A stretch of DNA of 24,799 nt from a virus. Taxonomy: Duplodnaviria > Caudoviricetes. The translations under genes were made by a program, and so were the position numbers. Below, one piece after another: positions 20-16,200 of this stretch (within the stretch, counting starts at the first letter, position 1; each line of letters opens with the position of its first letter). The stretch lies in the IMG/VR virus record IMGVR_UViG_3300023173_000970, positions 1-24,799 of that record. The stretch is one strand, 5' to 3'. The notes beneath the pieces were generated by a model. The model did no database searches. It saw only the letters and a program-made list of their open reading frames with translations, and was not told where the DNA came from.

Positions 20-134
20 GCTTACCTTCTTGTACCCCACAACATCATGGATGGATCTCGCTTGAGTGAGGATCTCTAAATGTGGTGGAGCAAACATCCG
101 TGCCCTACCCCGCAGTTGCGGGTCACGCAGAATG

Positions 135-335
135 TCAGTCGCTATCTCTGCGATAGGCCGTCGGACCATAGAACACCTCCGTTACTTCATCTAATGGAAC
201 GATGCGCTCGTCGATGCGGTCGATGACCGCTTGCCATGCGGCAGCGATGAGCACTTCGCTTAGTGATACCTCGTCCTCGATGAATGTCTCGTGGACAAGT
301 TCACCGTCTTGCGTTACTTCAACGTGGTACATCAT
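135..335 (-). CDS. small acidic hypothetical phage protein (66 aa)
   Basis: ORF track; AAGGAGG immediately upstream of ATG; tightly packed in the operon. Confidence 0.85.
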   Translation of the reverse strand: MMYHVEVTQDGELVHETFIEDEVSLSEVLIAAAWQAVIDRIDERIVPLDEVTEVFYGPTAYRRDSD

Positions 336-1008: not shown

Positions 1009-1338
1009 TTACTCAACCTCCTTATCTAGTTCTTCTTGATGATCTTTGATTGCTTGCCTCAAGTGATCCTCGATAGCGAGGAGGACCACGATGGTCATGC
1101 GTGTAAGGATTGACTGGAATGGAGTGAACAACTCCGCAGAACCCCACTCAAAGTCTTGAACCTCTGGGCTGCTGTTCCAAATGTCTATCACCTCGCTATG
1201 CCAGATGACGAACTCGCAACCATCAGCCGTCTCGTGAACCCACCTATCAACGTCATCACCAGGCAGGTCACCACTCTCAAAGGCATCCACTACCCACGAG
1301 TCGAGGGTCGCTTTCACCTCATCCCACTTGTTACTCAT
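1009..1338 (-). CDS. Ocr (T7 gp0.3)-like acidic DNA-mimic / anti-restriction protein (109 aa)
   Basis: About 26 D/E vs about 7 K/R; DDVDRWVHETADGCEFVIWHSEVIDI resembles Ocr [25 protein letters not shown] (from memory); similar size; early-region context. Confidence 0.6.
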   Translation of the reverse strand: MSNKWDEVKATLDSWVVDAFESGDLPGDDVDRWVHETADGCEFVIWHSEVIDIWNSSPEVQDFEWGSAELFTPFQSILTRMTIVVLLAIEDHLRQAIKDHQEELDKEVE

Positions 1339-1558
1339 CGAAGGAACCTCCCCTTTGAGCCAAAGGCTCGGTCATACGAGGCTCGTTCCAGTTACGGACG
1401 ACATACTGATGGGCGCTCTGACTGCTCTCTATATCTACTGAATCGGCTTCGTACAGCCCAACCTCGTATCCGTGGGCAAAGAAAGTCTCATTGAAGAATC
1501 GAATGAGACCTTCCTCGTCGTTGAACATGAGGTTGAGAACGAACGGTTTGTTACTCAT
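1331..1558 (-). CDS. hypothetical protein (75 aa)
   Basis: ORF track; AGAAAGG SD; overlaps the next gene. Confidence 0.8.
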   Translation of the reverse strand: MSNKPFVLNLMFNDEEGLIRFFNETFFAHGYEVGLYEADSVDIESSQSAHQYVVRNWNEPRMTEPLAQRGGSFDE

Positions 1559-1570
1559 ACCTACCTTTCT

Positions 1571-1645
1571 TGTTGAACGATCTGTCCAACATGGCGAAGG
1601 TCAGAGCCGAAGCCCTGACCTCCACCATACTCACAGATCCGTCAA
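1571..1645 (-). ncRNA. intergenic long UUCG hairpin with overlapping alternative 3' hairpin (element E5)
   Basis: GAUCUGU-G-AGUAUGGUG-GAGGUCAGGGC-UUCG-GCUCUGACCUU-CGCCAUGUU-GG-ACAGAUC; alternative stem UGUUGGAC/GUUCAACA; G:U pairs only on the minus strand. Confidence 0.7.
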
Positions 1646-1656
1646 TCATGCTGCAT

Positions 1657-2598
1657 TTAGCACTCAACCACATCGCTTACTTGATAGTCGTCAATGGTGA
1701 TTATGTGGTCACCCTCTCTCACCTCCGAGTTAACTAGGCTGTCGTCAATGTACGAACTAGCCTCATCACCGACGATTGACTCCGCATCTTGCTCGTTGCG
1801 TGCTGTCACGGAGATAGTGACAGGCACCGTCATCGTGACTGTCACATCAACGGTTACGTCATACTCCTTCTCACGAGGAGAGATGTAAGCGATCTTCGAC
1901 TCGCCATTGAACTGGTCTATGAACTGGTCGTACTCATTACACCAGTTACGGCTCTCGGCCTCCTGCTCAAGCATCGAACCGATCAGGTCAATGTCTGAGG
2001 AGTAATCCCGCTTCTGCTTCGTCATCTCCCAAAGCCGCATACTCACGCTGTGAAACTCATGGAACAACGTGGCACGAGTTTCCGACTCGGGATTGGGGAC
2101 AGACTCAGCAAATGTCCACGGCAAGCGGGTACTCCTACCAGCAGGCATCGCAAACTTGACCTGCTCTGTGTCGTCAGGCTTCTGCCGTGACTTGACCTCA
2201 CCCGTGACCACGACGCTGCCTTGAGAGTGATCCTCACCGTAAACCCAAGCAACATCAGTGACCGTTACTGTGTGTTCGGCAATAGATTGAGCATCCCTGA
2301 GAGAGTTGTAGCGATCCCAACGGTACTCATAAGGGAACTCTGGCTCATTACCGACCAGGATCTTGTCACCAATCATGGGGACGAAAGCGATCTGGTCGAA
2401 GTGAACCCAGCGATATTCGTCAGACCCCTCCTCACGGAAGTACCAGCGATCCTCACCGCTTTTGTAGTTAGCGTAACCCTTCTTGCCAATCATCGCGTCG
2501 GTGTAACCAGCCACGCTTGGTGCCTTTATGAACGCACGCGACTCGTTGTATCGAAGGGGGTTGCTCGATACAGCATCATCGTAAGTAATCGTACTCAT
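1657..2598 (-). CDS. hypothetical phage protein (313 aa, MSTITYDD...)
   Basis: ORF 1657..2676; the ATG at 2598 has an AGGAG SD, and the upstream extension lies inside a structured element. Confidence 0.85.
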   Translation of the reverse strand: MSTITYDDAVSSNPLRYNESRAFIKAPSVAGYTDAMIGKKGYANYKSGEDRWYFREEGSDEYRWVHFDQIAFVPMIGDKILVGNEPEFPYEYRWDRYNSLRDAQSIAEHTVTVTDVAWVYGEDHSQGSVVVTGEVKSRQKPDDTEQVKFAMPAGRSTRLPWTFAESVPNPESETRATLFHEFHSVSMRLWEMTKQKRDYSSDIDLIGSMLEQEAESRNWCNEYDQFIDQFNGESKIAYISPREKEYDVTVDVTVTMTVPVTISVTARNEQDAESIVGDEASSYIDDSLVNSEVREGDHIITIDDYQVSDVVEC

Positions 2599-2618
2599 TC
2601 TTACTCCTGTTATCTCAC

Positions 2619-2683
2619 CATCTATGCACGTTACATAGATGAGAAGGAGGGCAGGTTGCCCTGCCCCCCAACTCACTCATGCA
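2619..2683 (-). ncRNA. intergenic irregular GCAA-loop hairpin with alternative 3' hairpin (element E4)
   Basis: UGCAU-GAG-UGAG-UU-GGGGGCAGG-GCAA-CCUGCCCUC-CUU-CUCA-UCU-AUGUA; alternative stem CAUCUAUGUA/UGCAUAGAUG. Confidence 0.65.
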
Positions 2684-2696
2684 CCCTGCTATTACC

Positions 2697-2864
2697 TCAG
2701 TAAACGCCCACCCCTAACATTTGATGAGGCGTGCGCTCGAAGTTCACATCTTCTAAATAATCTAAGACTTCTTCAGCGTCCAAGTTGTCGGGGACACTTA
2801 CAACTACACAATCTTCTACGGGCATGTAAGTACCCGTTCCTTCGTGATACCAAACCATGCTCAT
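2697..2864 (-). CDS. small acidic hypothetical protein (55 aa, MSMVWYHEGTGTYMPVEDCVVV...)
   Basis: Translated by hand; ATGA overlap with the upstream stop; fills the gap. Confidence 0.75.
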   Translation of the reverse strand: MSMVWYHEGTGTYMPVEDCVVVSVPDNLDAEEVLDYLEDVNFERTPHQMLGVGVY

Positions 2865-3061
2865 ACCAACTCACGCTCTCCTTCATTGATCTCCCATGCT
2901 GCACGTTGAGCAGCGAACTCAGTCATGAAGTCACCTTGAGAGCCGTCACCACCCTCATTCCTCGTCGGCAAGTGGATCAGTTCATAACCGTAGTTGCCGT
3001 TGTAAGGGTCATGAACAATCCACCACTCACCATCAGAGGAGAAGAACTCCACTCGTTCCAT
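2861..3061 (-). CDS. hypothetical protein (66 aa, MERVEFFSSDGEWW...)
   Basis: Internal ATG of ORF 2861..3163 with GAGG SD, just after the upstream stop. Confidence 0.75.
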   Translation of the reverse strand: MERVEFFSSDGEWWIVHDPYNGNYGYELIHLPTRNEGGDGSQGDFMTEFAAQRAAWEINEGERELV

Positions 3062-3062
3062 G

Positions 3063-3173
3063 TCATACCTCGCAATCGTGTCCGTAGTGCCATTCCTGAC
3101 GGTCAATCCCATCAGCCATATCGAACACTCGATCACACTCCTCGCACTTCTGATACAAGCCAATGCCCAGCAT
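3063..3173 (-). CDS. mini C2HC Zn-finger protein (36 aa, MLGIGLYQKCEECDRVFDMADGIDRQEWHYGHDCEV)
   Basis: Translated by hand; TAATG overlap with the upstream stop; CxxC...HxC motif. Confidence 0.75.
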   Translation of the reverse strand: MLGIGLYQKCEECDRVFDMADGIDRQEWHYGHDCEV

Positions 3174-3559
3174 TAGTCGAGCCTGCTCTCTACCCAAGCG
3201 TCAATGTCATGAGACTGAAGCACACCAACAAAGGCATGGGCATAAGCACACTTGATCTCATACGATTGACCGCCCTCATGGACAGAGATAGCAAGCCCAC
3301 TCGGGTAGCCCTTCCGAGCCACACCAGCAGCCTTAGCCCATCTGCCCCAACCTGTATTGCCCTTGAAGCAGATAGAAGCGAAGCCACACACACCTTGAGG
3401 GACGTAGTACGTCGGCTTAGTCTCGTCAATCGTGTCATCGAACAGCGACTTCGCTGTCCCCACGATCATCGGAACCGGAACCTTCGCATTGGCGGCTTCC
3501 ATAGCAGCCTCATGCGCCTCAATGTAGATGGCCCCATAGTTCTTGTCATACCAACTCAT
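3173..3559 (-). CDS. conserved-type phage hypothetical protein (128 aa; CGFA...QS..K.AYA.AF..VL...SRLD)
   Basis: ATG at 3559 with AAAGAGG SD; motif pattern recalled from phage early proteins; function unknown. Confidence 0.85.
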   Translation of the reverse strand: MSWYDKNYGAIYIEAHEAAMEAANAKVPVPMIVGTAKSLFDDTIDETKPTYYVPQGVCGFASICFKGNTGWGRWAKAAGVARKGYPSGLAISVHEGGQSYEIKCAYAHAFVGVLQSHDIDAWVESRLD

Positions 3560-3584
3560 CTTGATACCTCTTTCTCTTGAACGT

Positions 3585-3641
3585 AGCGTTGTTGCCACGC
3601 TCAGGGAAGCCACCCGAAGGTGGCAACCCTCAACTTGGCAA
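3585..3641 (-). ncRNA. intergenic irregular UUCG hairpin with alternative 3' hairpin (element E3)
   Basis: UUGCCA-AGUUG-AGGG-UU-GCCACC-UUCG-GGUGGC-UU-CCCU-GAGCG-UGGCAA; alternative stem AGCGU/ACGCU. Confidence 0.65.
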
Positions 3642-4064
3642 GTTGCTTCTGATGTTGGCGATGTGCTCTTGATGTTGCTTGTCTTGAAGGTGCTTCACTT
3701 GTCGCAAAGCGAGCAGATGGATACACCATTGCAAGTAAGGATCAGTCCGTAACGCCTGCTGTCTACTGTCCTTGCCGCCCGTAAAAAGGGTGGTGCTGTG
3801 ATAGTCGCCGTCCTCGCCGAAGCGAGCGACAACCTGAGTGCCCCGACCGTCCCAACCTTGGTGAACACAGACGTAGCAGTCCCACCTTCTCTGCTCCCTC
3901 TGAAGTTCACCATCAACCCTCGGCACCCACATCGTTTCTTCGATGATCTGCCCTATGGGTTCACAGTTGTCGCAATCGTGACGGTGGCGGTACTGCGGAA
4001 GCCTTGGCGTTTCGATGTATTCCATGACCTCGTACACCATGCGGCGGCCCTCGTCACTCATCAC
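3630..4064 (-). CDS. hypothetical protein with HDCxxC / YxC metal-binding motif (~144 aa)
   Basis: ORF track; overlaps the upstream stop; HDCDNC...DCYVC...VVARFGEDGDYHS. Confidence 0.85.
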   Translation of the reverse strand: MMSDEGRRMVYEVMEYIETPRLPQYRHRHDCDNCEPIGQIIEETMWVPRVDGELQREQRRWDCYVCVHQGWDGRGTQVVARFGEDGDYHSTTLFTGGKDSRQQALRTDPYLQWCIHLLALRQVKHLQDKQHQEHIANIRSNLPS

Positions 4065-4221
4065 TTACCCTCTCGATTACAACCGCCTCGACTACAACGT
4101 CGTCGTAGCCGTCGTTCTTGAGGATCTGAGCAGTTAGGTCTGCCGCCTCTTTAGTCATGTAGTAGTCGGCCTCTACGCCACCAACCCACACAACAAAGTG
4201 CGCTTCACTCCTGGTACTCAT
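4054..4221 (-). CDS. small hypothetical protein (55 aa, ...VVWVGGVEADYY...GYDDVVVE)
   Basis: Internal ATG of ORF 4054..4362 with AGGAG SD. Confidence 0.8.
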   Translation of the reverse strand: MSTRSEAHFVVWVGGVEADYYMTKEAADLTAQILKNDGYDDVVVEAVVIERVSDE

Positions 4222-4237
4222 CTCGCTACTCCTAACT

Positions 4238-4299
4238 CCCTGGTGATCTGCCAGGGTGAAAGACAGGGGCCGAAGCCCCTGCCTAACAGAATGGCAGAT
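4238..4299 (-). ncRNA. intergenic irregular UUCG hairpin with alternative 3' hairpin (element E2)
   Basis: AUCUGCCA-UUC-UG-UU-AGGCAGGGGC-UUCG-GCCCCUGUCU-UU-CA-CCC-UGGCAGAU; alternative stem CCCUGG/CCAGGG. Confidence 0.7.
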
Positions 4300-4306
4300 A
4301 ACTAGA

Positions 4307-4606
4307 TCACCCTGCAATCCATTCAGGCTCAATCTCCTTGTAGGCGGCAATCTCAGCCTCATGGACAGCCCTTTCTTCAGCCTGCTCAGCAGCCAACTCT
4401 GGGTCGGTCGGCTGGCAACCAGTCATATCGAAGGGCACTTCGTAGCCGTCAGATGACGACATGCACAACTGAGCCAAGAACCAGTTAAACTCGTCTTGTG
4501 CCCTGACTGCTGCGGTGTCTGCGTCACCCGCTTCGGTAACGATGTGGATAATCGCTTCGACCTTTGCGTCGTTTCTGACGTAACGATAGGTAGTACAATG
4601 CTCCAT
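4307..4606 (-). CDS. acidic hypothetical protein (99 aa)
   Basis: ORF track; AAGGAG SD. Confidence 0.85.
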   Translation of the reverse strand: MEHCTTYRYVRNDAKVEAIIHIVTEAGDADTAAVRAQDEFNWFLAQLCMSSSDGYEVPFDMTGCQPTDPELAAEQAEERAVHEAEIAAYKEIEPEWIAG

Positions 4607-4627
4607 CGTGATACTCCTTGATCGCTA

Positions 4628-4692
4628 AGTTGGCCTATCTGACCAACTGAAAGAGCCAGGGTCGAAACCCTGGCCCAATCAGAACGTCAGAC
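4628..4692 (-). ncRNA. intergenic irregular UUCG hairpin with alternative 3' hairpin (element E1)
   Basis: GUCUGAC-GUU-CUGA-UU-GGGCCAGGGU-UUCG-ACCCUGGCUC-UU-UCAG-UUG-GUCAGAU; alternative stem AGUUGGUC/GGCCAACU; begins right after the TAG stop. Confidence 0.7.
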
Positions 4693-4956
4693 CTAATACT
4701 TGTATCCAGGACAGTCCTGCTCACCAAGAAGGTGTCCCTCGGCGTAGCACACCGGACAGACCCACTTGATATCCCTCTGCCGCATACAGACTTCGAGAGC
4801 CATCGGCAGCGGAACCCTGCTCGACGACGACAGACCCTCGAACCGTGGGAAGTACCGCCGAAGGTCAGTCAGAACGTCCCTCGATAACAGACCGAGGAAC
4901 ATCGCAACCTCGTAGACTCTCGGCCCACGTTCCACCGTCCACTTCTGCTTAGCCAT
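4693..4956 (-). CDS. hypothetical protein with C-terminal CCHC zinc knuckle (87 aa)
   Basis: GAAAGGAG SD; CPVCYAEGHLLGEQDC. Confidence 0.85.
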   Translation of the reverse strand: MAKQKWTVERGPRVYEVAMFLGLLSRDVLTDLRRYFPRFEGLSSSSRVPLPMALEVCMRQRDIKWVCPVCYAEGHLLGEQDCPGYKY

Positions 4957-4972
4957 ACTGATCTCCTTTCAG

Positions 4973-5026
4973 AGGCTCATCAGCACCGTCATCAACGGTG
5001 GACACCCCCGAAGGGGTGTTTCGCCT
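4973..5026 (-). ncRNA. type II hammerhead self-cleaving ribozyme; predicted cut after GUC, between 5001 and 5000
   Basis: AGGC-GAAA-CACCCC-UUCG-GGGGUG-UC^-CACCGU-UGAUG-ACGGUG-CUGAUGA-GCCU: full CUGAUGA/GAAA/GUC core with three perfectly paired stems, stem II open. Confidence 0.93.
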
Positions 5027-5239
5027 TTAGGCATTTGACAACTTGCGGATCAGGTCAGAAGCCCCACCCTTGGTCTTGACGTTGGGCAGGTCAGCGATCT
5101 TGAGCGACTGCTCGTAGCAGAGCGTCGAGATCTTCCTGATCTGAGCAGCCGTAGCAGGGTCTTTCCGCCAATCCCTCTTAGGCTTGACCGTCCTGGTCTT
5201 GCCGTTGGCGAGGGTCACGGTGAAGGATTGCTTAGCCAT
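5027..5239 (-). CDS. small basic protein, first gene of the early operon (70 aa; PATAAQ...TKGGASDLIRKL, DUF3072-like helical motif)
   Basis: ORF track; GAAAGAGAG SD; motif resemblance from memory. Confidence 0.85.
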   Translation of the reverse strand: MAKQSFTVTLANGKTRTVKPKRDWRKDPATAAQIRKISTLCYEQSLKIADLPNVKTKGGASDLIRKLSNA

Positions 5240-5266
5240 TTTGATCTCTCTTTCATCTTGCAGGGT

Positions 5267-5317
5267 GTAACCGGCAGGGTGTTCTGTCGGCTACTTCCAT
5301 TCCATCATGCACGTCAA
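5267..5317 (-). promoter_or_regulatory. candidate early promoter region and 5' leader hairpin
   Basis: TTGACG at 5317-5312 (-35-like), but no good -10 at 17-18 bp; hairpin TAGCCGACAG/CTGCCGGTTA upstream of the first gene. Confidence 0.3.
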
Positions 5318-5419: not shown

Positions 5420-5621
5420 GCACACTACCCCAATAGGTGCAGAAACGCACGACCTGGGGGGGTTTTAAGCAAGCCCCCCCGTGGGGTGTGTACAGACCTG
5501 AGAAAAATTTTGACCAGAAACCCGCGTGTTTGCAGGGTGTTGAAAGTTTTTGTTTCTTGGGGGGTTGCTTTTTGTGAATTGCCAGACTACAGGGTTATTA
5601 GTAGAAGCCTTTTTTTACTAA

Positions 5622-5780: not shown

Positions 5781-6242
5781 ATGTCCAGAGTGAGTTCGTT
5801 ACTGCGCTCGTTTGATCCGTTCGCTTCCTGCGTCAGCGACGCTGCGATTTTCTACGCGGTGGAGGAGAAGTCCTCCGCATGGTGGGATCGGAACGTTTGG
5901 CATTTTGTTCGGCTTGATGGTTCTGGCTGCGCCATTTGGCGCGGCGCATTGCAGGCCAATCAGAACATTGGCGGTAGGTCTTTATCTCACCCGTTGGTCG
6001 AGTTGAAGGTCGCCGGTTACACATCTTTTATCCCGTTGAGGACGCGCCGGTTGTTGTGGGCGTGGGCGTATGGGTACGAGACGCTGCCCGATGGGAAGCA
6101 GACAGATTTCTCCACCGACGAGGTTATCTCGATGACCTGCTGGAACCACTTGTGCGTGAGCGCACAGCACATGGAGAAGGTTGATCGGACGGAGTTGGGT
6201 TACAAGACATGGGCCAAGGAGACAGGTCAGGTCGCCGGGTAG
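5781..6242 (+). CDS. HNH/His-Cys-box endonuclease-like protein, catalytic motif degenerate (153 aa)
   Basis: GCAIWRGA...RRLLWAWAYG...LPDG...ISMTCWNHLCVSAQHME matches the CWxWxG...HR...HxCxNxxCVNPxHL pattern with substitutions. Confidence 0.7.
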   Translation: MSRVSSLLRSFDPFASCVSDAAIFYAVEEKSSAWWDRNVWHFVRLDGSGCAIWRGALQANQNIGGRSLSHPLVELKVAGYTSFIPLRTRRLLWAWAYGYETLPDGKQTDFSTDEVISMTCWNHLCVSAQHMEKVDRTELGYKTWAKETGQVAG

Positions 6243-10263: not shown

Positions 10264-12459
10264 ATGGCTAAGAGAAAATTTGGTGAGCCGCCAGGTCAAA
10301 CCCGAACGAAGAGGCAAACCAAGAAAAAGGGAAACCGCTACTCGAAGTTCGGATTAGGTCCGGCTTTTGTGGGGGATGTCGCTAAGGGACTCGGTGAAGA
10401 CCTAGTAAGTATGGGTAAGACCGCGTTCGATCCGCGCCTGCCATTCATGCGGGGGAAGGACGCTGAGAAGGCGAAGCGAGACGCTGCCCTTCTAGGGATG
10501 ACCGTTATCCCTGGTGGCAAACTCATAAAGCCGATTGCCAAGGCAGCGAAGACCGCGAAGAAGACCACGAAAACTCCTGGCACTTCCACCGTCAAGAAGA
10601 CGACGAAGAAGGCAGCCGAGAAAAAGGCAGCGGCTAAGAAGACAACCAAGAAGACCACGGCTAAGAAGACCCCTACTCTCCAACTTAGGAAAGTTCCCCC
10701 GAACTTTAAGAATCTTCCGCGCCCCAAGTCGGTCAAGCCCGGTGCTCCCAAGAAGCCCCAGTTTATGATTGATAAGCAACGGGCGGCAGACCTTAAGAAA
10801 CTTGGTGACACGGGTAAGCGTGGTCGTCCACAGCCTAAGCCCAAAGATTTAAAGACAGACGCTCCTGGTGGTTCGACCAGCCCAGGGTTCACAAAAAAGC
10901 GTTCTCCTAAGTACGAGCCTGAGCCGACAACGGCTCGACCCGTTTCACCGGCTAAGAGCGGTGAGGCTCGCACTACCCCGATGAGCACCAAAGAGGTAGA
11001 GGACACTCTTGGTAAGTTGGGATTCAAGCGAAGCGAGACTGGACTCGAAGGCGCGTACAAGCGTTACAAGAGCAAAGGTCTTGACAAACCCAAGACCCGC
11101 ACAAAAGGTGTAACAAAGAAGACCTCCGCTCAGCGCGAGGCTTCGGAAGCACAGGTCGAGCGCAGGAAGAAGGCTGGTGGCAGTCAGGCATTAAAGGACG
11201 CGATCAGGAACCCGAAACTTGGTGGTGATGTTTCCATCGCCAAGATGTCTCCTGCTGAACTCAAGAAGGCTTTGTCTAACCCAAGAAGTTCTGAGTCTCG
11301 CCTAATGAAGACTCTTGAGAAGCGAGCCAGGCGCGGGAATCTGCGCGAAGGTGAGATGCAGGTTCTCAACCGGCTTCGGGATAACGCTCCGAAGGCAAGC
11401 AATCAAAGGCAAACCGAAGGCTTGATGCGAGATGGCATTCGATCCGTCGGTCAAGGTCAGGCAGAAGGTGGCTCTAAGGCTGGATTCGTAAACCCGCCGC
11501 GTAACGTCAAGGCCAGTAATCCGAAGTGGCGAGGCGAAGGCGGCAAAGACGCGCCGAAGGGTCCAGAAGGTAAATCCGGTACAGCCAAGCGTGGCGACAA
11601 GGTAACCGAGAGGGCTAAGGAAGAAGACGGCGTAACCCGCATTAAGGGTAAGGGCGGTCAAGCACGCAGGGTGATCGCACCAAGCACAGATGTTGCTGTT
11701 GCCCGTGGCGGTCCTCGCGGTCGCCGCGTTGGTGGGGGTGCCACATCTGGTCGTAAGCCAATCGCCCTCGGCTCCGGCAGGAGAACGCCAAGCAAAGATG
11801 TAGTTCGTGGCGAAGTAGTCCGTGGAGGTAGAACTAGCGGTGGCAGCAAGGGGCGCACAGCGAAGCCCGTTGATCTCAAGACCAGGCCCGTTGGTGGCGG
11901 TCGTGGAAGTTCCGGTCGCGGCCCTGCTGCTCGTGGTACTGCTGGTCGTGGTGCTGCTCGCGCTGCTATCGGATCTAGTGCTGCAAAAGGCAAGGGCAAG
12001 GGAAAGAAAGCCAGGGACATAACTCCTGTTGCTGCTGCTGTAGGTGCGGGTGGATTTGCCGCAAGCAAGGCAGGCGGCGTAGCCGAGAGGACTGCCCCGA
12101 AGGAATCGGACAAGGACAAGGTAACTCCTCGCCCGAAGAAGCCCACGAGCCAGTTGCGGGATAAGTACGGTCGCAAGATTGATCGCGCCGAGTTCAACCG
12201 ACGCGAGGCTTACCGCAAGTCCCTTGAGGGTATGACCGAAGCGGAGAAGAAGAAGGCTCGCAAGGCCGAGATGAAGCGCCGGGAGGCGTACCGCGCCCGT
12301 AAGGGTAAGGGAGCGAACATCATTACCCGCAACCTTGACCTGAAAGAAGGCGTATCTAGCCGCAAGGTCAACAAGGAAATGAAGGCTGCTGCCGGTAAGG
12401 GTGGCAATCGTCAAGCGGCAATCGACGCTCGAAAGAAGTACCAGAGAAAGAAGAAGTAA
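10264..12459 (+). CDS. very large basic low-complexity protein with histone-H1-like K/A/T tract (731 aa)
   Basis: GAGG SD; KKTTKKAAEKKAAAKKTTKKTTAKK tract; RGG/GR-rich segment; few hydrophobic residues. Confidence 0.85.
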   Translation: MAKRKFGEPPGQTRTKRQTKKKGNRYSKFGLGPAFVGDVAKGLGEDLVSMGKTAFDPRLPFMRGKDAEKAKRDAALLGMTVIPGGKLIKPIAKAAKTAKKTTKTPGTSTVKKTTKKAAEKKAAAKKTTKKTTAKKTPTLQLRKVPPNFKNLPRPKSVKPGAPKKPQFMIDKQRAADLKKLGDTGKRGRPQPKPKDLKTDAPGGSTSPGFTKKRSPKYEPEPTTARPVSPAKSGEARTTPMSTKEVEDTLGKLGFKRSETGLEGAYKRYKSKGLDKPKTRTKGVTKKTSAQREASEAQVERRKKAGGSQALKDAIRNPKLGGDVSIAKMSPAELKKALSNPRSSESRLMKTLEKRARRGNLREGEMQVLNRLRDNAPKASNQRQTEGLMRDGIRSVGQGQAEGGSKAGFVNPPRNVKASNPKWRGEGGKDAPKGPEGKSGTAKRGDKVTERAKEEDGVTRIKGKGGQARRVIAPSTDVAVARGGPRGRRVGGGATSGRKPIALGSGRRTPSKDVVRGEVVRGGRTSGGSKGRTAKPVDLKTRPVGGGRGSSGRGPAARGTAGRGAARAAIGSSAAKGKGKGKKARDITPVAAAVGAGGFAASKAGGVAERTAPKESDKDKVTPRPKKPTSQLRDKYGRKIDRAEFNRREAYRKSLEGMTEAEKKKARKAEMKRREAYRARKGKGANIITRNLDLKEGVSSRKVNKEMKAAAGKGGNRQAAIDARKKYQRKKK

Positions 12460-13212: not shown

Positions 13213-16200
13213 GTTCATTGGTGACGAAGCGGCAACCTTGACTCCTGCCGATAATCTCGGTAAGCCAATCAAGGATGCGTCAGAAGAAACTCGTCAGCAG
13301 ATGATTGAGGCTGATCGAGTGCGGCAACGAATGGCCCTTCAGGAAGAAGCCGAAACTCCCAATCTCGTTCAGCGATTCCTCAATCCCGCCCTAAACGCTG
13401 TTGATTCCGGCATCGAAAAAATAGATAACTTTTACAAAGAGACGGAACAGAATTACACCGCTCTCATTGATTTTGCTGGTAGCGCAGTTACGGGTAATGA
13501 GCGACTAACGCTGGAAGATACCTACAAGGTCTCCCCCGGTCAGGCTATTGAAGCGAACATAGAGGCTCTATTCGATGACAGCGTTCGGTTGGCTGACGAT
13601 GACTGGCGTGAGTCCCAATGGGGTGTGTCTAACCGCAACCCACTCGATGATGACTTCAATGTCAACTATTCGACTGGTGCCCTTGACTTCGCCGTTGACT
13701 GGTATCTCGATCCACTTGTCCTCGGGTCCAAGTTTACAAAGGTTCTACGTTTCGGTACGGCATTCGGTAAGCCCATTCCTGGCATGGCGGGTGGCCTAAC
13801 GCACCGCTTAACATCCGGCAAGGCTGGCGCAAAAGTAATACAGCAGGTCGGTAATGACATTGACCAGGCAATCGCCAACCCCAGTAGTCAGGTGGGAAGC
13901 GTCGGCAAAATAAATCAGATGGCTAGGGATCTAGCCAAGAACGATTACAACTACGCGCTCACGGTGCGAGAGTTTCGAGGCCCAAATCAGGGAGCCTTGG
14001 CTACGGCAGCGTCATTGATAGATGACGAGAGAACCATGAAGGTGTTTCTCGGGGCGATGACTGGTTCGCAGCGCCACATTGACGAACTGGCGAACATCAG
14101 GAATGACATCTACACGAATGTTATGAAGTTGGCTCATCCTGATGTGTACGAGCGTCTTGCGGTGCATACGGCAGAGTCGAAAATGCCCGTCGCGCTAGAG
14201 CGTTTCCTCGAACCCGGCGCTGACGGCGTGAAGCGCATCGAGGCTATGGCTGACAATAGCGAAGAGTTCGCCGACATCCTCCGTGAAATGGGGTACGGCT
14301 ACAGACTTAAGGGAGTTAAGGCCGCTTCCCGTCTTTCGCAGGAAGTCGGCGGCGGTGCGGTCATTCGAGACTGGCGCAGCCCTTACCAGTCTGCTTTGTA
14401 CAAGAAGCGCAATGCCCGTAAGTTGCAAGCGGAGAAGCGCGGCACCTCACCGGCTGCACGCGAGTTTATGTACATAGACAACTTCGGTATTCCCCTTCGC
14501 CTGTTGTCTGCCACCAAGCAGTTCCTTACTGGCAAGGAGACCAACGGCCTCGTCCAGGTGAGGGGCTTGGAGGCCGGTCGAGGCTTTACCGAGATCAGGG
14601 CAGTCGGAACTGACTCCTCGGTTCTGCGTAACTCTGGTTTCGAGCGTGAGGCTTTGGAAATCTGGGGTAAGGCTGTAACCCCAGACGAAAAGTTTGTTGC
14701 GGTCAAGGAGATCGAGAACCGGGCTTTCGAGATCCAGGTCGCTCACTACCTTGGTAAAAGCGATCTCGGTGAGCAGGTGAAAAAACTGTCCGACGAGGAT
14801 CAGCGCAAGGTGATGAAGGATCTTAACGATCTTCGTAGTGACTTGTACAAAAGGATTGATAAGCGACGGGCTGAGATTCTTCGGATCGCTCGTGACCCGA
14901 AGCGTGCCTACGCCACATACATTGACCCCGATAATGGCGTTCAGGTAGTTTTGGATAAGCGTCTGCGCTCGCAGTTATCTGTTGCTGAGCCGATGCTGGA
15001 CATGAAAATGTTGCAAAAGACCGCTCGCCTTCTTGTCAGGGACTTTTCTAAGCAGTACGACTTAACAAACGATCTACTGTCTGCCGGTAGTAGGACAAAA
15101 GTTCCCGGCGTGGGCAAGGGTCAAGGCTTCCGAAATTGGAGCGTAAACACGCTCGATACCACTCTCGCCTTGTGGAAGGCTACTGTCCTAATCCGTGCGG
15201 GTTACACGCAGCGCAACCTTTTCGAGAACTCTCTACGTTCCGTTGCCACTATCGGCATCTTGCCGATGATCGCCAGAATGCCTGGTGGTGTAGCGAAGAT
15301 AACGAACAACACCTACAAGCGTGGCAAGAACAGAACCATTGTGAAGCGGTGGAACCGCCTCGCTAATGAAGAGGCTGAAAAGATCGCCAACTTTAAGGCT
15401 CGCATTGCTAGGGGCACTCTTGGTCTTGATGACCAACTAGCGGAGTCAGAGCAGCAACTCGCCGCCCTTTTGGAAAAGATTCGTAAGACCGAACTTAACC
15501 TGACCGGGGACGCGCAGAAAGTATTTGGACTGGAACTATTCAAGGCAACGGGTATCAGGGTTGGGGACGAGTGGTTCACTCCCTGGGATGACGTTACTCG
15601 TGACCTGACTTCGATGGGAAACACCAATCGCCAGACCTTGAACGCCCTGATTGATGGTGAGTCTGACCTGCTGGTTGACAGCCAAAAGTACATCATGGTC
15701 AACCCTGGCGACCCGCAGTATTGGGACGAGTTAGTCCAGTCAGGTATTCAGTTTGTTGAAGATGAGGTTACTAAACGAGTCCTGCAAGGCCAGAGCGCAG
15801 AGTCCATCATCAAGTGGATGAAAAGCCCCAATGCTCGCTACTACCGAGACGACATGAAGACACCCATTCGCGGTGTCTCCGACTACGTTGCAAATCGAGT
15901 TGAGATGGTCGAACGGTACCTGCCAACGGAGAAGTCCAGGCAGATGGTCCTCGATGGAAACGTCTCCCCCGCTCAACTCAAGGCCGAACTGGGGAATCTA
16001 ATCGAGTCAACGATAACCCCGCTCAGCCCGATTCATGGTCGGGAAGTTACGGAAAAAGTTAGAAACTGGGGATTTCGACCCGTTACCAATTGGGTCTTCA
16101 ACCTCATCGGTGATCTACCGGAGACACATCTGAATCGGCAGCCCTTCTACGACACCGTATGGAGGAAAGAGTTCAACGCTCGGGTCGCTAACGCACGGGA

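Follow-up and report, generated by a model that had tools for sequence, protein, structure and literature searches.

The window analysed here (the whole 24,799-nt stretch of DNA) comes from a podovirus with kinship to the Beephvirinae, cluster BF of the Streptomyces phages; its host is likely an actinobacterium, judging from a WhiB gene and the relatives of the phage terminase. An array of small leftward genes, early by position, is punctuated by five structured RNA elements, E1 to E5, with a type II hammerhead ribozyme at the first junction (Table 1). No family above the cut-off was found for the ORFs of this array. The phage has no RNase III gene; the enzyme was found in all four bacterial genomes checked (three Streptomyces and one labelled Nanopelagicus). 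A T7-type RNA polymerase was not found in the complete genome, in a search whose control likewise found nothing.

Table 1. Features of the early gene array and its surroundings, in window coordinates. P3 is the second hairpin of each element; cuts are predicted.
Feature	Position	Strand	Description
Early-leader DNA boxes	5260..5281	+	Two box copies, opposite orientation; third copy at 5532-5539
Small-gene array	1331..5239	-	Leftward genes punctuated by E1–E5
Type II hammerhead	4967..5026	-	First junction; Rfam RF02276, 43.9 bits, E 4.3e-06
E1	4628..4692	-	Basal helix; UU/UU loop (4678-77 / 4652-51); 10-bp apical stem 4676-4653 capped by UUCG; downstream cut after 4650; P3 4648-4628
DNA box	4308..4315	-	GCAGGGTG, operator-like; lies immediately before E2 and is distinct from its RNA fold
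E2	4238..4299	-	Basal helix; UU/UU loop; 10-bp apical stem 4284-4261 capped by UUCG; cut after 4258; P3 4256-4238
E3	3578..3641	-	Basal helix containing the upstream stop codon (3632-3630); UU/UU loop 6 bp below UUCG; cut after 3602; P3 3603-3578, up to 10 bp, preferred even uncut
DNA box	2682..2689	-	GCAGGGTG, overlapping the 5′ end of E4
E4	2618..2684	-	Basal helix; UU/UU loop; 10-bp apical stem 2669-2646 capped by GCAA; cut after 2643; P3 2642-2618
DNA box variant	1640..1655	-	GCAGCATG, then a TGAnG block at fixed spacing; upstream of E5
E5	1571..1645	-	Basal helix; uninterrupted 18-bp stem 1629-1590 capped by UUCG; cut after 1595; P3 1591-1571; homologues in sister phage clade

A preliminary description of this DNA had proposed the five elements, and all of them are present on the minus strand (fold z −4.64, −4.38, −4.70, −5.35 and −6.72), with as good a fold in 0 of 200 shuffles for each. 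The minus-strand RNA had been named as the functional form, and it is indeed 2.5–16.7 kcal/mol more stable than the plus strand; the z-scores of E1 and E2 are alike on both strands, so that the strand call there comes from the UUCG loops, G·U pairs and gene direction. The caps (four UUCG and one GCAA), the UU/UU internal loop of E1 to E4 and the RUCUG/CAGAU basal helix of E1, E2 and E5 are all as first read. Likewise, a second hairpin, P3, shares the basal 3′ strand in all five (p = 0.0105, 0.013, 0.006, 0.0015 and 0.009 when the bases 3′ of the P3 loop are permuted), although that of E3 is longer than had been stated, at up to 10 bp and reaching 3578. The SD, described as free in both folds, is so in E1, E3, E4 and E5 (unpaired probability 0.62–0.89 uncut and 0.69–0.97 in the 3′ product) but not in uncut E2 (0.29 in the segment folded). 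The stated lack of a long U-tail applies to E2 to E5 but not quite to E1, where five of 8 nt are U and a simple terminator scan scores a match; as that scan gave 3 sites against 3.6 expected, the E1 match is no enrichment. Equilibrium folding predicts that P3 is already preferred without a cut by E3, and by E2 with some flanks, the P3 probability of E2 flipping between 0.0 and 0.98 with the flanks chosen. Rfam holds no family for elements of this type.

The hammerhead reported at the first junction is real, scoring above the gathering score of 37, with its CUGAUGA and GAAA core, NUH triplet and three stems all present. Self-cleavage is predicted between 5001 and 5000, and the downstream product folds with a 7-bp hairpin at its start, ahead of the SD; a hairpin likewise begins the predicted products of E1–E5. 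None of the hammerhead core, in contrast, is found in those elements. Its sequence is identical in the related genome L062, and only identical or near-identical copies (L002, L062) occur among the relatives scanned.

Separate from the hairpin elements, a repeated DNA box overlaps or precedes E2, E4 and E5. The spacing from GCAGCATG to TGAnG upstream of E5 is unchanged in homologues, and the early-leader copies are retained in L004, L005 and L062.

One architecture, in which a long irregular stem flawed by a U·U is overlapped by a second hairpin and followed by the SD, recurs in 29 of the 51 annotated early-gene junctions of five cultured Streptomyces phages (Beephvirinae) and the window, compared with 36 of 612 dinucleotide shuffles. 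The distance from the apical loop to the start of P3 is 13–17 nt for 26 of the 29 real matches versus 13 of the 36 shuffled ones. Among 49 elements that we curated out of 67 matches, 48 have a 3′ arm of 25–31 nt, the irregular long helix being counted as quasi-continuous. Ten of the 49 are perfect duplexes across their first 16 positions; in the 39 with a flaw, the first one is U·U in 22 (seated on a G–C pair in 20), and 34 have it at a distance of 7–11 positions from the loop, with just 6 bp above it in E3. In a sequence-only alignment of 24 copies, the SD columns alone are invariant.

Covariation had been named as the check on the second hairpin, and both hairpins covary among 15 E5 homologues: pairing holds in 98.3% of cells, with 11 of 20 pairs changed on both sides, and P3 is 100% paired, with four of its six pairs changed on both sides. 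This was matched by 0 of 500 shuffles, and slid controls pair at 28–57%. The basal strand also pairs into the P3 loop, in 56 of 65 cells (partner-swap p = 0.01, with kinship among copies ignored), although imperfectly at the outer positions (8/13 and 9/13). Three helix substitutions of E4 in the close relatives L062 and L054 all preserve pairing. Because P3 overlaps the long stem, the two folds exclude each other; of the pseudoknot and the mutually exclusive fold offered earlier as alternatives, the latter is favoured. The long-stem fold takes 20–90% of the 5′ strand of P3 in 49 of 49 elements, and between the basal helix and the 3′ strand of a full-length P3 there are 0 free nt in 44, 1 in three and 2 in two; by the usual geometry of pseudoknots, a linker of 0–2 nt would be too short to cross a 5-bp helix, and a minimal 5+6-bp knot with a 2-nt linker is disfavoured. 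When cut in silico at arm position 13, 44 of 49 elements are predicted to form P3 with a probability above 0.5 (median 0.99), whereas uncut the probability has a median of 0.05 and exceeds 0.8 in eight. The five in-silico products of the window have 0–3 unpaired 5′ nt.

Their geometry, covariation and conservation in cultured Streptomyces phages suggest that E1–E5 are probably RNase III-type cut-and-refold signals, with cleavage as a prediction. The long stem, of about two turns, would form first during transcription; RNase III would then make one cut in its 3′ arm, beside the U·U flaw and some 13 nt down from the apical loop, as described for the internal-loop sites of T7 and SP82. The upstream mRNA would retain a 3′ hairpin and the downstream mRNA would begin 0–4 nt before P3. 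Once folded, P3 would protect the newly made 5′-phosphate end against RNase J and RNase E, and the SD would stay open. At the first junction the hammerhead would reach the same outcome by self-cleavage. Of the two forms of the earlier idea of cleavage modules, that of an RNase III cut followed by a 5′ hairpin is supported, with the cut itself predicted, and that of an unrecognised ribozyme is not.

Several properties of RNase III bear on this proposal. For the E. coli enzyme, 11 bp of helix must separate the cut from the tetraloop, and a typical substrate has two turns (PMC1540722); in T7 and SP82 internal-loop stems the cut is on the downstream side (PMC1935012). In the phage elements the arm lengths correspond to about two turns with at least 11 bp from cut to loop, the flaw is mostly near the cut, and the start of P3 falls just past the downstream cut predicted from RNase III geometry. 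The rpsO–pnp hairpin of S. coelicolor is an RNase III substrate, cut at an internal loop, and the RNase J of this species favours ends with a 5′ monophosphate (PMC10126417). In that hairpin, however, the cuts are made on both sides, mainly the 5′, and are destabilising (PMC10126417), whereas we propose a single protective one. The rules used to place it come from E. coli, and the host of the window phage is itself only inferred. We also checked the E. coli box preferences (proximal positions 2 and 4 free of G–C; a UA/UG distal box): counted from the loop, in a register that is not fixed, G–C occupies position 9 in 22 of 49 elements and position 11 in 19, and positions 1–2 are mostly G–C. A G–C at position 11, below which the E. 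coli enzyme cuts, is a catalytic antideterminant for that enzyme (PMC1540722). As Streptomyces RNase III prefers G–C-rich duplexes (PMC10126417), the E. coli proximal and distal box rule may not apply. Since E3, and E2 with some flanks, are predicted to prefer P3 uncut, their RNase III helix would be too short unless the order of folding traps the long stem.

It is unlikely that the long stems instead stay uncut and act as barriers (U-poor terminators, pause sites or blocks to 3′ exonucleases) that grade expression along the operon, with P3 protecting 5′ ends made by another nuclease. U-poor terminators are common in actinobacteria, the apical stem of E1 passed the terminator scan, and the PeSL stem-loops of T4-type phages are proven terminators (PMC2839356). 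Yet at most four U occur in the 8 nt after 47 of the 49 apical stems; the G+C hairpin and U-rich tract of an intrinsic terminator are seen in E1 only among the five, and five U in 8 nt in only two across the family; P3 is followed by no U-tract (at most two U in 8 nt, 49 of 49). Nor does a terminator require a two-turn irregular lower stem, or a second hairpin at a fixed 13–17-nt offset.

Comparison with close relatives indicates that the elements are breakpoints of gene exchange between phages; under the cut-and-refold proposal, the marking of such sites by conserved elements would be a side effect. E3, E4 and E5 are 93–98% identical islands in L062 and L054, placed at gene-swap breakpoints as PeSLs are (PMC2839356, PMC4122927). 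Different genes follow E2, E3 and E5, and a different gene precedes E3; in L062, E3 is 97.7% identical (86 nt) between neighbours that are new on both sides, and E2 is unchanged next to a different gene. A PeSL-like arrangement, in which each junction has its own promoter, P3 is the 5′ hairpin of an internal transcript and the long stem stops upstream transcription, is nevertheless improbable. The E5-type 5′ arm does have invariant bases and an upstream box at fixed spacing, the first gene of the sister clade has the box and a ATGGTGGTAG-type block followed only by a P3-like hairpin, and a promoter of a non-E. coli-consensus kind is possible at E5-type elements. But the box is absent from E1 and E3, the elements at Streptomyces phage junctions lack the box as well as any conserved promoter-like bases, and a scan for sigma-70-type promoters found none at an element (1 site against 3.2 expected, for the E. 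coli consensus only); a start near the top of the 5′ arm, moreover, would not make P3 the 5′ end.

We give little credence to a ribosome-gated switch, in which a ribosome terminating at the upstream stop would melt the basal helix and flip the RNA to the P3 fold; the RNase III helix would thereby lose its lower half, and whether the RNA is cut or protected would depend on upstream translation. The helix base lies −6 to +12 nt from the upstream stop in 18 of 24 Streptomyces-phage elements, but compact spacers would place the stem near the stop regardless. With pairing blocked as far as 12 nt beyond the stop, the P3 probability goes from 0.01 to 1.0 for E1 and from 0 to 0.4 for E4, but E5 does not flip. 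The two states are within ~5 kcal/mol in most junctions, among those listed; the SD, however, is mostly open in both, with no obvious translational output. There is only a slim chance that such processing switches tie early-transcript segmentation to the translation of each upstream gene, with host-nuclease switch and hammerhead interchangeable on swappable cassettes.

A self-cleaving ribozyme that has gone unrecognised, or a pseudoknot with basal helix and P3 formed together, is very improbable even with a real hammerhead at the first junction and a basal 5′ strand that complements the first 5 nt of the P3 loop, with compensatory changes (E1, E2, E5, L005 and the sister clade), given the steric constraints above, the perfect-duplex elements, the lack of any Rfam match (E ≤ 1) for E1–E5 or their homologues, and the lack of an invariant core, which makes a new ribozyme unlikely: the invariant bases of the E5 type lie inside a duplex or the upstream box and are missing from E1–E4.

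The elements are unlikely to be a new ribozyme, and the cut-and-refold principle has precedent. If the proposal is true, segmentation of early messages in the T7/SP82 style also operates in podoviruses that infect actinobacteria, where a second, built-in step caps every mRNA set free. Cultured phages carry the same elements, and their laboratory Streptomyces hosts are available as rnc and rnj null mutants, which makes the idea directly testable. The roughly 50 natural variants would help to define what actinobacterial RNase III recognises, and the elements could yield portable mRNA-stabilising spacers for Streptomyces expression.

Among known systems, the PeSL cassettes of the T4-type phages RB49 and phi1 likewise combine a conserved intergenic stem-loop and SD with exchange of small flanking genes (PMC2839356, PMC4122927); they carry strong sigma-70 promoters besides their proven terminator stems, and no such promoter was found at E1–E5. 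The present elements differ further in that copies within one genome differ in sequence and a second hairpin overlaps the first. The Streptomyces rpsO-pnp hairpin, a site of the host RNase III (AbsB), is likewise long, irregular and cut at an internal loop (PMC10126417), although its two-sided processing departs from our proposal. Folded in three Streptomyces genomes, it shows in each a U·U that sits above a G–C pair, ~12 positions away from the loop; we infer this to be the cut internal loop, the loop bases not being given in the review text (PMC10126417).

The early mRNA of T7 has RNase III sites R0.3, R0.5, R1, R1.1 and R1.3, and R1.1 has a larger asymmetric internal loop, in contrast to the small 1×1 or 2×2 U·U flaws seen here. 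Like the present elements, T7 sites are intergenic irregular stems of about two turns between podovirus early genes, with UUCG/GNRA-type caps, an internal flaw ~10–12 positions below the loop and a single downstream cut that leaves a 3′ hairpin (PMC1540722, PMC1935012), the cut being a prediction for our elements. The E1–E5 family differs in its likely actinobacterial host, its G–C-rich stems and the covarying second hairpin built into the 3′ arm.

By analogy, the early RNA of the Bacillus phages SP82 and SPO1 is the closest functional precedent for cut-and-refold. Sharp and Bechhofer reportedly found in 2005 that the downstream SP82 product is stabilised by a 5′-terminal stem-loop. Bs-RNase III cuts the internal-loop stems of these RNAs once, on the downstream side (PMC1935012), and the downstream product is stabilised by the RBS (PMC7509114). 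Host phylum and phage type are different; in the phages described here, a refolding hairpin occurs at most junctions and is kept by covariation.

The five long irregular hairpins (E1–E5) that the preliminary description placed between the leftward small genes hold up as folds of the minus strand, with folding z scores of −4.4 to −6.7 and none of 200 shuffles as stable. Their tetraloops, the UU/UU internal loops of four and the RUCUG/CAGAU basal helices of three are as described, as is the overlapping second hairpin (P3), for which permuting the bases 3′ of its loop gave p = 0.0015–0.013 across E1–E5. Some details required revision: P3 of E3 exists but extends further than first drawn, E1 passes a simple terminator scan despite the supposed lack of U-tails, and the SD, held to be free in both folds, is not clearly so in uncut E2 (unpaired probability 0.29). 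P3 is predicted to outcompete the long stem without any cut in E3 and, with some flanks, in E2.

Positions of the elements, of selected genes and of the repeated box (L040, complete genome matching the window in the genes compared; L043 and L044, compared phage genomes or contigs)
Feature	Sequence	Position	Strand	Remark
E1	window	4628–4692	minus	fold vs shuffles
E2	window	4238–4299	minus	fold vs shuffles
E3	window	3585–3641 (P3 reaching 3578)	minus	fold vs shuffles
E4	window	2619–2683	minus	fold vs shuffles
E5	window	1571–1645	minus	fold vs shuffles
Tyrosine integrase	L040	7279-8244	minus	
WhiB	L040	11738-12139	plus	
Sigma-70-region-4 protein	L040	15322-15963	plus	
Box copies	window	4308-4315, 2682-2689, 1647-1654	minus	
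Box copies	window	5260-5267, 5274-5281, 5532-5539	plus	
Box copy	L040	15317-15324		
Box copy	L043	6494		
Box copy	L044	10790		

Metagenome contigs and a sister clade whose terminase is about 68% identical supplied homologues of E5. Aligned, 15 of them show pairing of the long stem plus P3 in 98.3% of 290 cells and changes on both sides in 11 of 20 pairs; P3 by itself is paired in 100%, with four of its six pairs changing on both sides. These figures are not probabilities, because the structure was derived from the same, related sequences. None of 500 shuffles reached these values, and slid controls paired in 28–57%. The opening five bases of the P3 loop also find partners in the basal 5′ strand: 13 distinct rows give 56 paired cells of 65 (partner-swap p = 0.01), none of the unpaired cells falling in the three middle positions. 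Among the window's near relatives, four of five helix substitutions keep pairing and the other abolishes a terminal G·U pair in E1; none hits a P3 stem. Three E5-type copies in compared genomes or contigs (L049 493-597, L058 15-133, L063 619-723) carry a short UUCG unit duplicated atop the stem, which lengthens it and leaves the lower stem and P3 intact.

Most early junctions of the cultured Streptomyces phages Immanuel3, WRightOn, Manuel, FlowerPower and Dennebes carry the same architecture (Abafar, nearly identical to WRightOn, was examined and kept outside the counts). Of these phages, Manuel has S. lividans as its host. Annotation alone was used to define junctions, as spacers of ≥45 nt (45 in the five phages, six in the window; no hand selection). 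The architecture descriptor matched 29 of 51 real junctions vs 36 of 612 dinucleotide shuffles, and the distance from the apical loop to the start of P3, on its 3′ side, was 13–17 nt in 26 of the 29 real and 13 of the 36 shuffled matches. The descriptor missed the window's E2 in this count and its E5 in a separate locus scan; a first, looser version had many in-gene matches and was replaced. A larger set comprises 49 elements kept by hand from 67 matches to the second descriptor at 20 loci. Those dropped comprised matches inside genes, hairpins in leaders, a single first-promoter hairpin and a variant whose apical stem is duplicated; their P3 offsets were 7–21 (5/18 within 13–17). Among the 49 retained, the offset is 13–17 in 45, the 3′ arm measures 25–31 nt in 48, and of the 39 with any flaw 22 have U·U as the first; a U-tract follows P3 in none, and five U in the 8 nt after the apical stem occur in just two. 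The Streptomyces elements lay beyond the E5 covariance model, as did E1, E3 and E4, and E2 was found weakly (E 0.015); since the model fails on the Streptomyces copies, the wider family is united by architecture rather than sequence. Nor is the array general: across 41 further terminase-related loci it is clear in one (L071, sister clade), 14 have one to three scattered matches and 26 none, and by eye it is absent from the compared loci L012, L065 and L157.

We moderately favour a reading of the elements as RNase III-type cut-and-refold signals. Cuts by this enzyme usually leave a 2-nt overhang. The E. coli enzyme is described as needing an 11-bp helix from cut to tetraloop, with two-turn substrates typical (PMC1540722), and the internal-loop stems of T7 and SP82 as being cut on the downstream side (PMC1935012). 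Given the 11-bp rule and the overhang, RNase III would be expected to cut the 3′ arm after position 13, 0–4 nt upstream of P3, and this cut would free P3 to form at the downstream 5′ end with the SD open. Cutting at position 13 in silico raised the median P3 probability from 0.05 to 0.99 (above 0.5 in 44 of 49 elements), and the five window products then began with 0–3 unpaired bases, the SD staying open. In E1 to E5, respectively, the cut is predicted after 4650, 4258, 3602, 2643 and 1595 (±2). Structure at the 5′ end is reported to block access of RppH and RNase E (PMC3997798). For S. coelicolor, one account has RNase J preferring monophosphate ends and RNase III preferring G–C duplexes and cutting the rpsO–pnp hairpin at an internal loop (PMC10126417). 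Folds of that hairpin from three Streptomyces genomes place a U·U on a G–C pair some 12 positions away from the apical loop; this U·U is presumably the internal loop that is cut, and 20 of the 22 U·U flaws in the phage elements lie on a G–C pair. Counter to the model, P3 is already favoured uncut in 8/49 elements, a G–C pair, which is antideterminant for E. coli RNase III, occupies position 11 in 19/49, and the host rpsO–pnp site is described as cut on both sides and destabilised (PMC10126417).

In four salt-marsh metatranscriptome runs the region is present as contigs only, at depth 2–8. Among 24 of the 25 pieces, two have ends near predicted cuts (at 4258, exactly where E2 should be cut, and at 1597, 2–3 nt off the predicted E5 cut) vs an estimated 0.4 or so by chance. 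Seven pieces cross predicted sites (E1, E2, E3 and E5 once each, E4 twice, the hammerhead once, by 25 nt). Coverage also extends beyond the likely promoter on its upstream side, which means that the RNA libraries may contain DNA, and the contigs count neither for nor against cleavage.

A switch between the long stem and P3 gated by ribosomes appears quite improbable to us. In 18 of 24 Streptomyces elements the base of the helix does coincide with the upstream stop or follow it closely, and E1 flips to P3 in silico once the stretch at or past that stop is blocked. A new self-cleaving ribozyme, raised in the preliminary description, is unlikely: 24 copies aligned by sequence only share no invariant column aside from the SD, 10 of 49 elements are perfect duplexes over 16 positions, and Rfam scans (47 source entries) found nothing but the hammerhead, in two near-identical copies, with no match for E1–E5. 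A minimal knot with a 2-nt linker over five pairs would be geometrically disfavoured. The pseudoknot once offered as an option is disfavoured because the long-stem fold uses 20–90% of the 5′ strand of P3 in 49/49 elements, with a gap of 0–2 nt between the basal helix and the 3′ strand of P3 (the zeros being counted with P3 at full length), making the two folds mutually exclusive.

The type II hammerhead at the first junction proved genuine (43.9 bits), and nothing else in the window matches Rfam at E ≤ 1. Its self-cleavage is predicted between 5001 and 5000. The downstream product is predicted to begin with a hairpin before the SD, which would fit a purpose shared with E1–E5. A small predicted hairpin containing the upstream stop codon (window 5022-5031, minus strand) competes with stem II, and hammerhead folding might therefore depend on translation of the first gene. 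In L005, a relative with 89% terminase identity, the junction after the first gene (about 100-185, minus strand) lacks the hammerhead and forms a stem-plus-P3 with a purine internal loop replacing UU/UU; the window's second gene is absent.

The window belongs to a tailed phage. The terminase starts a rightward structural operon at 6209, and the leftward small-gene array, from 5239 to the left end of the window, has no family match above cut-off. A complete record of 43,686 bp with direct terminal repeats has a terminase and a 128-aa early protein identical to those of the window. This record (L040, 43.7 kb), which shows full identity to the window across the genes compared, carries genes for WhiB, a tyrosine integrase and a sigma-70-region-4 protein, and is therefore likely a temperate phage of an actinobacterium. 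We infer both this host, leaving out the MAG labels of terminase contigs (Rhodospirillaceae, Polynucleobacter, others), and the label 'early' for the small-gene array. By terminase (about 41%), the closest named relatives are the Streptomyces cluster BF phages (Beephvirinae), described as podoviruses (PMC9753666). A search for a T7-type polymerase gave no match, and neither did its control. A 731-aa ORF that is extremely Lys/Arg/Gly-rich (window 10264-12459, plus strand) is flanked by the putative portal gene and an ORF of 1564 aa.

The early operon is headed by a TTGACG hexamer with a conserved downstream block (window 5312-5317, minus strand; no canonical −10 at 16-18 nt), the equivalent hexamer being TTGACA in the close relative L062 (about 905-935). 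The early leader of Immanuel3 (L064, about 14900-15400, minus strand) has several promoter candidates of the TTGACA/TTGACC-17/18-GAGGGT type, and two copies of a motif that we take to resemble rRNA-operon leaders (boxA/processing stalk), a possible antitermination mimic. Viral contigs scanned for a leader motif yielded 11 matches, all unrelated and attributable to chance. E5-type elements may hold a promoter too, since their upstream blocks recur at the first gene of the sister clade, where only a P3-like hairpin follows.

The asymmetric box GCAG[GC][AG]TG occurs 13 times in 20 kb vs 3.2 expected, and GCAGGGTG six times in the window vs 0.9 expected. It precedes E2, E4 and E5, is absent before E1 and E3, and was not seen at Streptomyces-phage junctions. 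Many copies lie at gene junctions, oriented with transcription, and one overlaps the start codon of a sigma-70-region-4 HTH gene in the window's phage (by eye, of the homologue in two relatives). The box probably serves as an operator independent of the RNA signal; a DNA operator is preferred to long-range RNA pairing of leader boxes with those at E2 and E4 because copies are found genome-wide, many at gene junctions. It appears to resemble the stoperators described in mycobacteriophages (PMC9283540).

In the close relatives L062 and L054, E3–E5 are islands of 93–98% identity and E2 is unchanged, while flanking genes have been replaced or lost. The PeSL cassettes of T4-type phages are described with such an exchange pattern (PMC2839356; PMC4122927), the difference being that a search for sigma-70 promoters at the window's elements found none. 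The Beephvirinae literature covered, mostly other than subscription papers and supplements, contains no description of such elements. They are real, conserved and uncatalogued, and the kind of signal is already known: by analogy, E1–E5 would work like the RNase III sites of T7, reportedly listed by Dunn and Studier in 1983, and of SP82, whose cleavage products are said by Sharp and Bechhofer in 2005 to carry a stabilising 5′ stem-loop.
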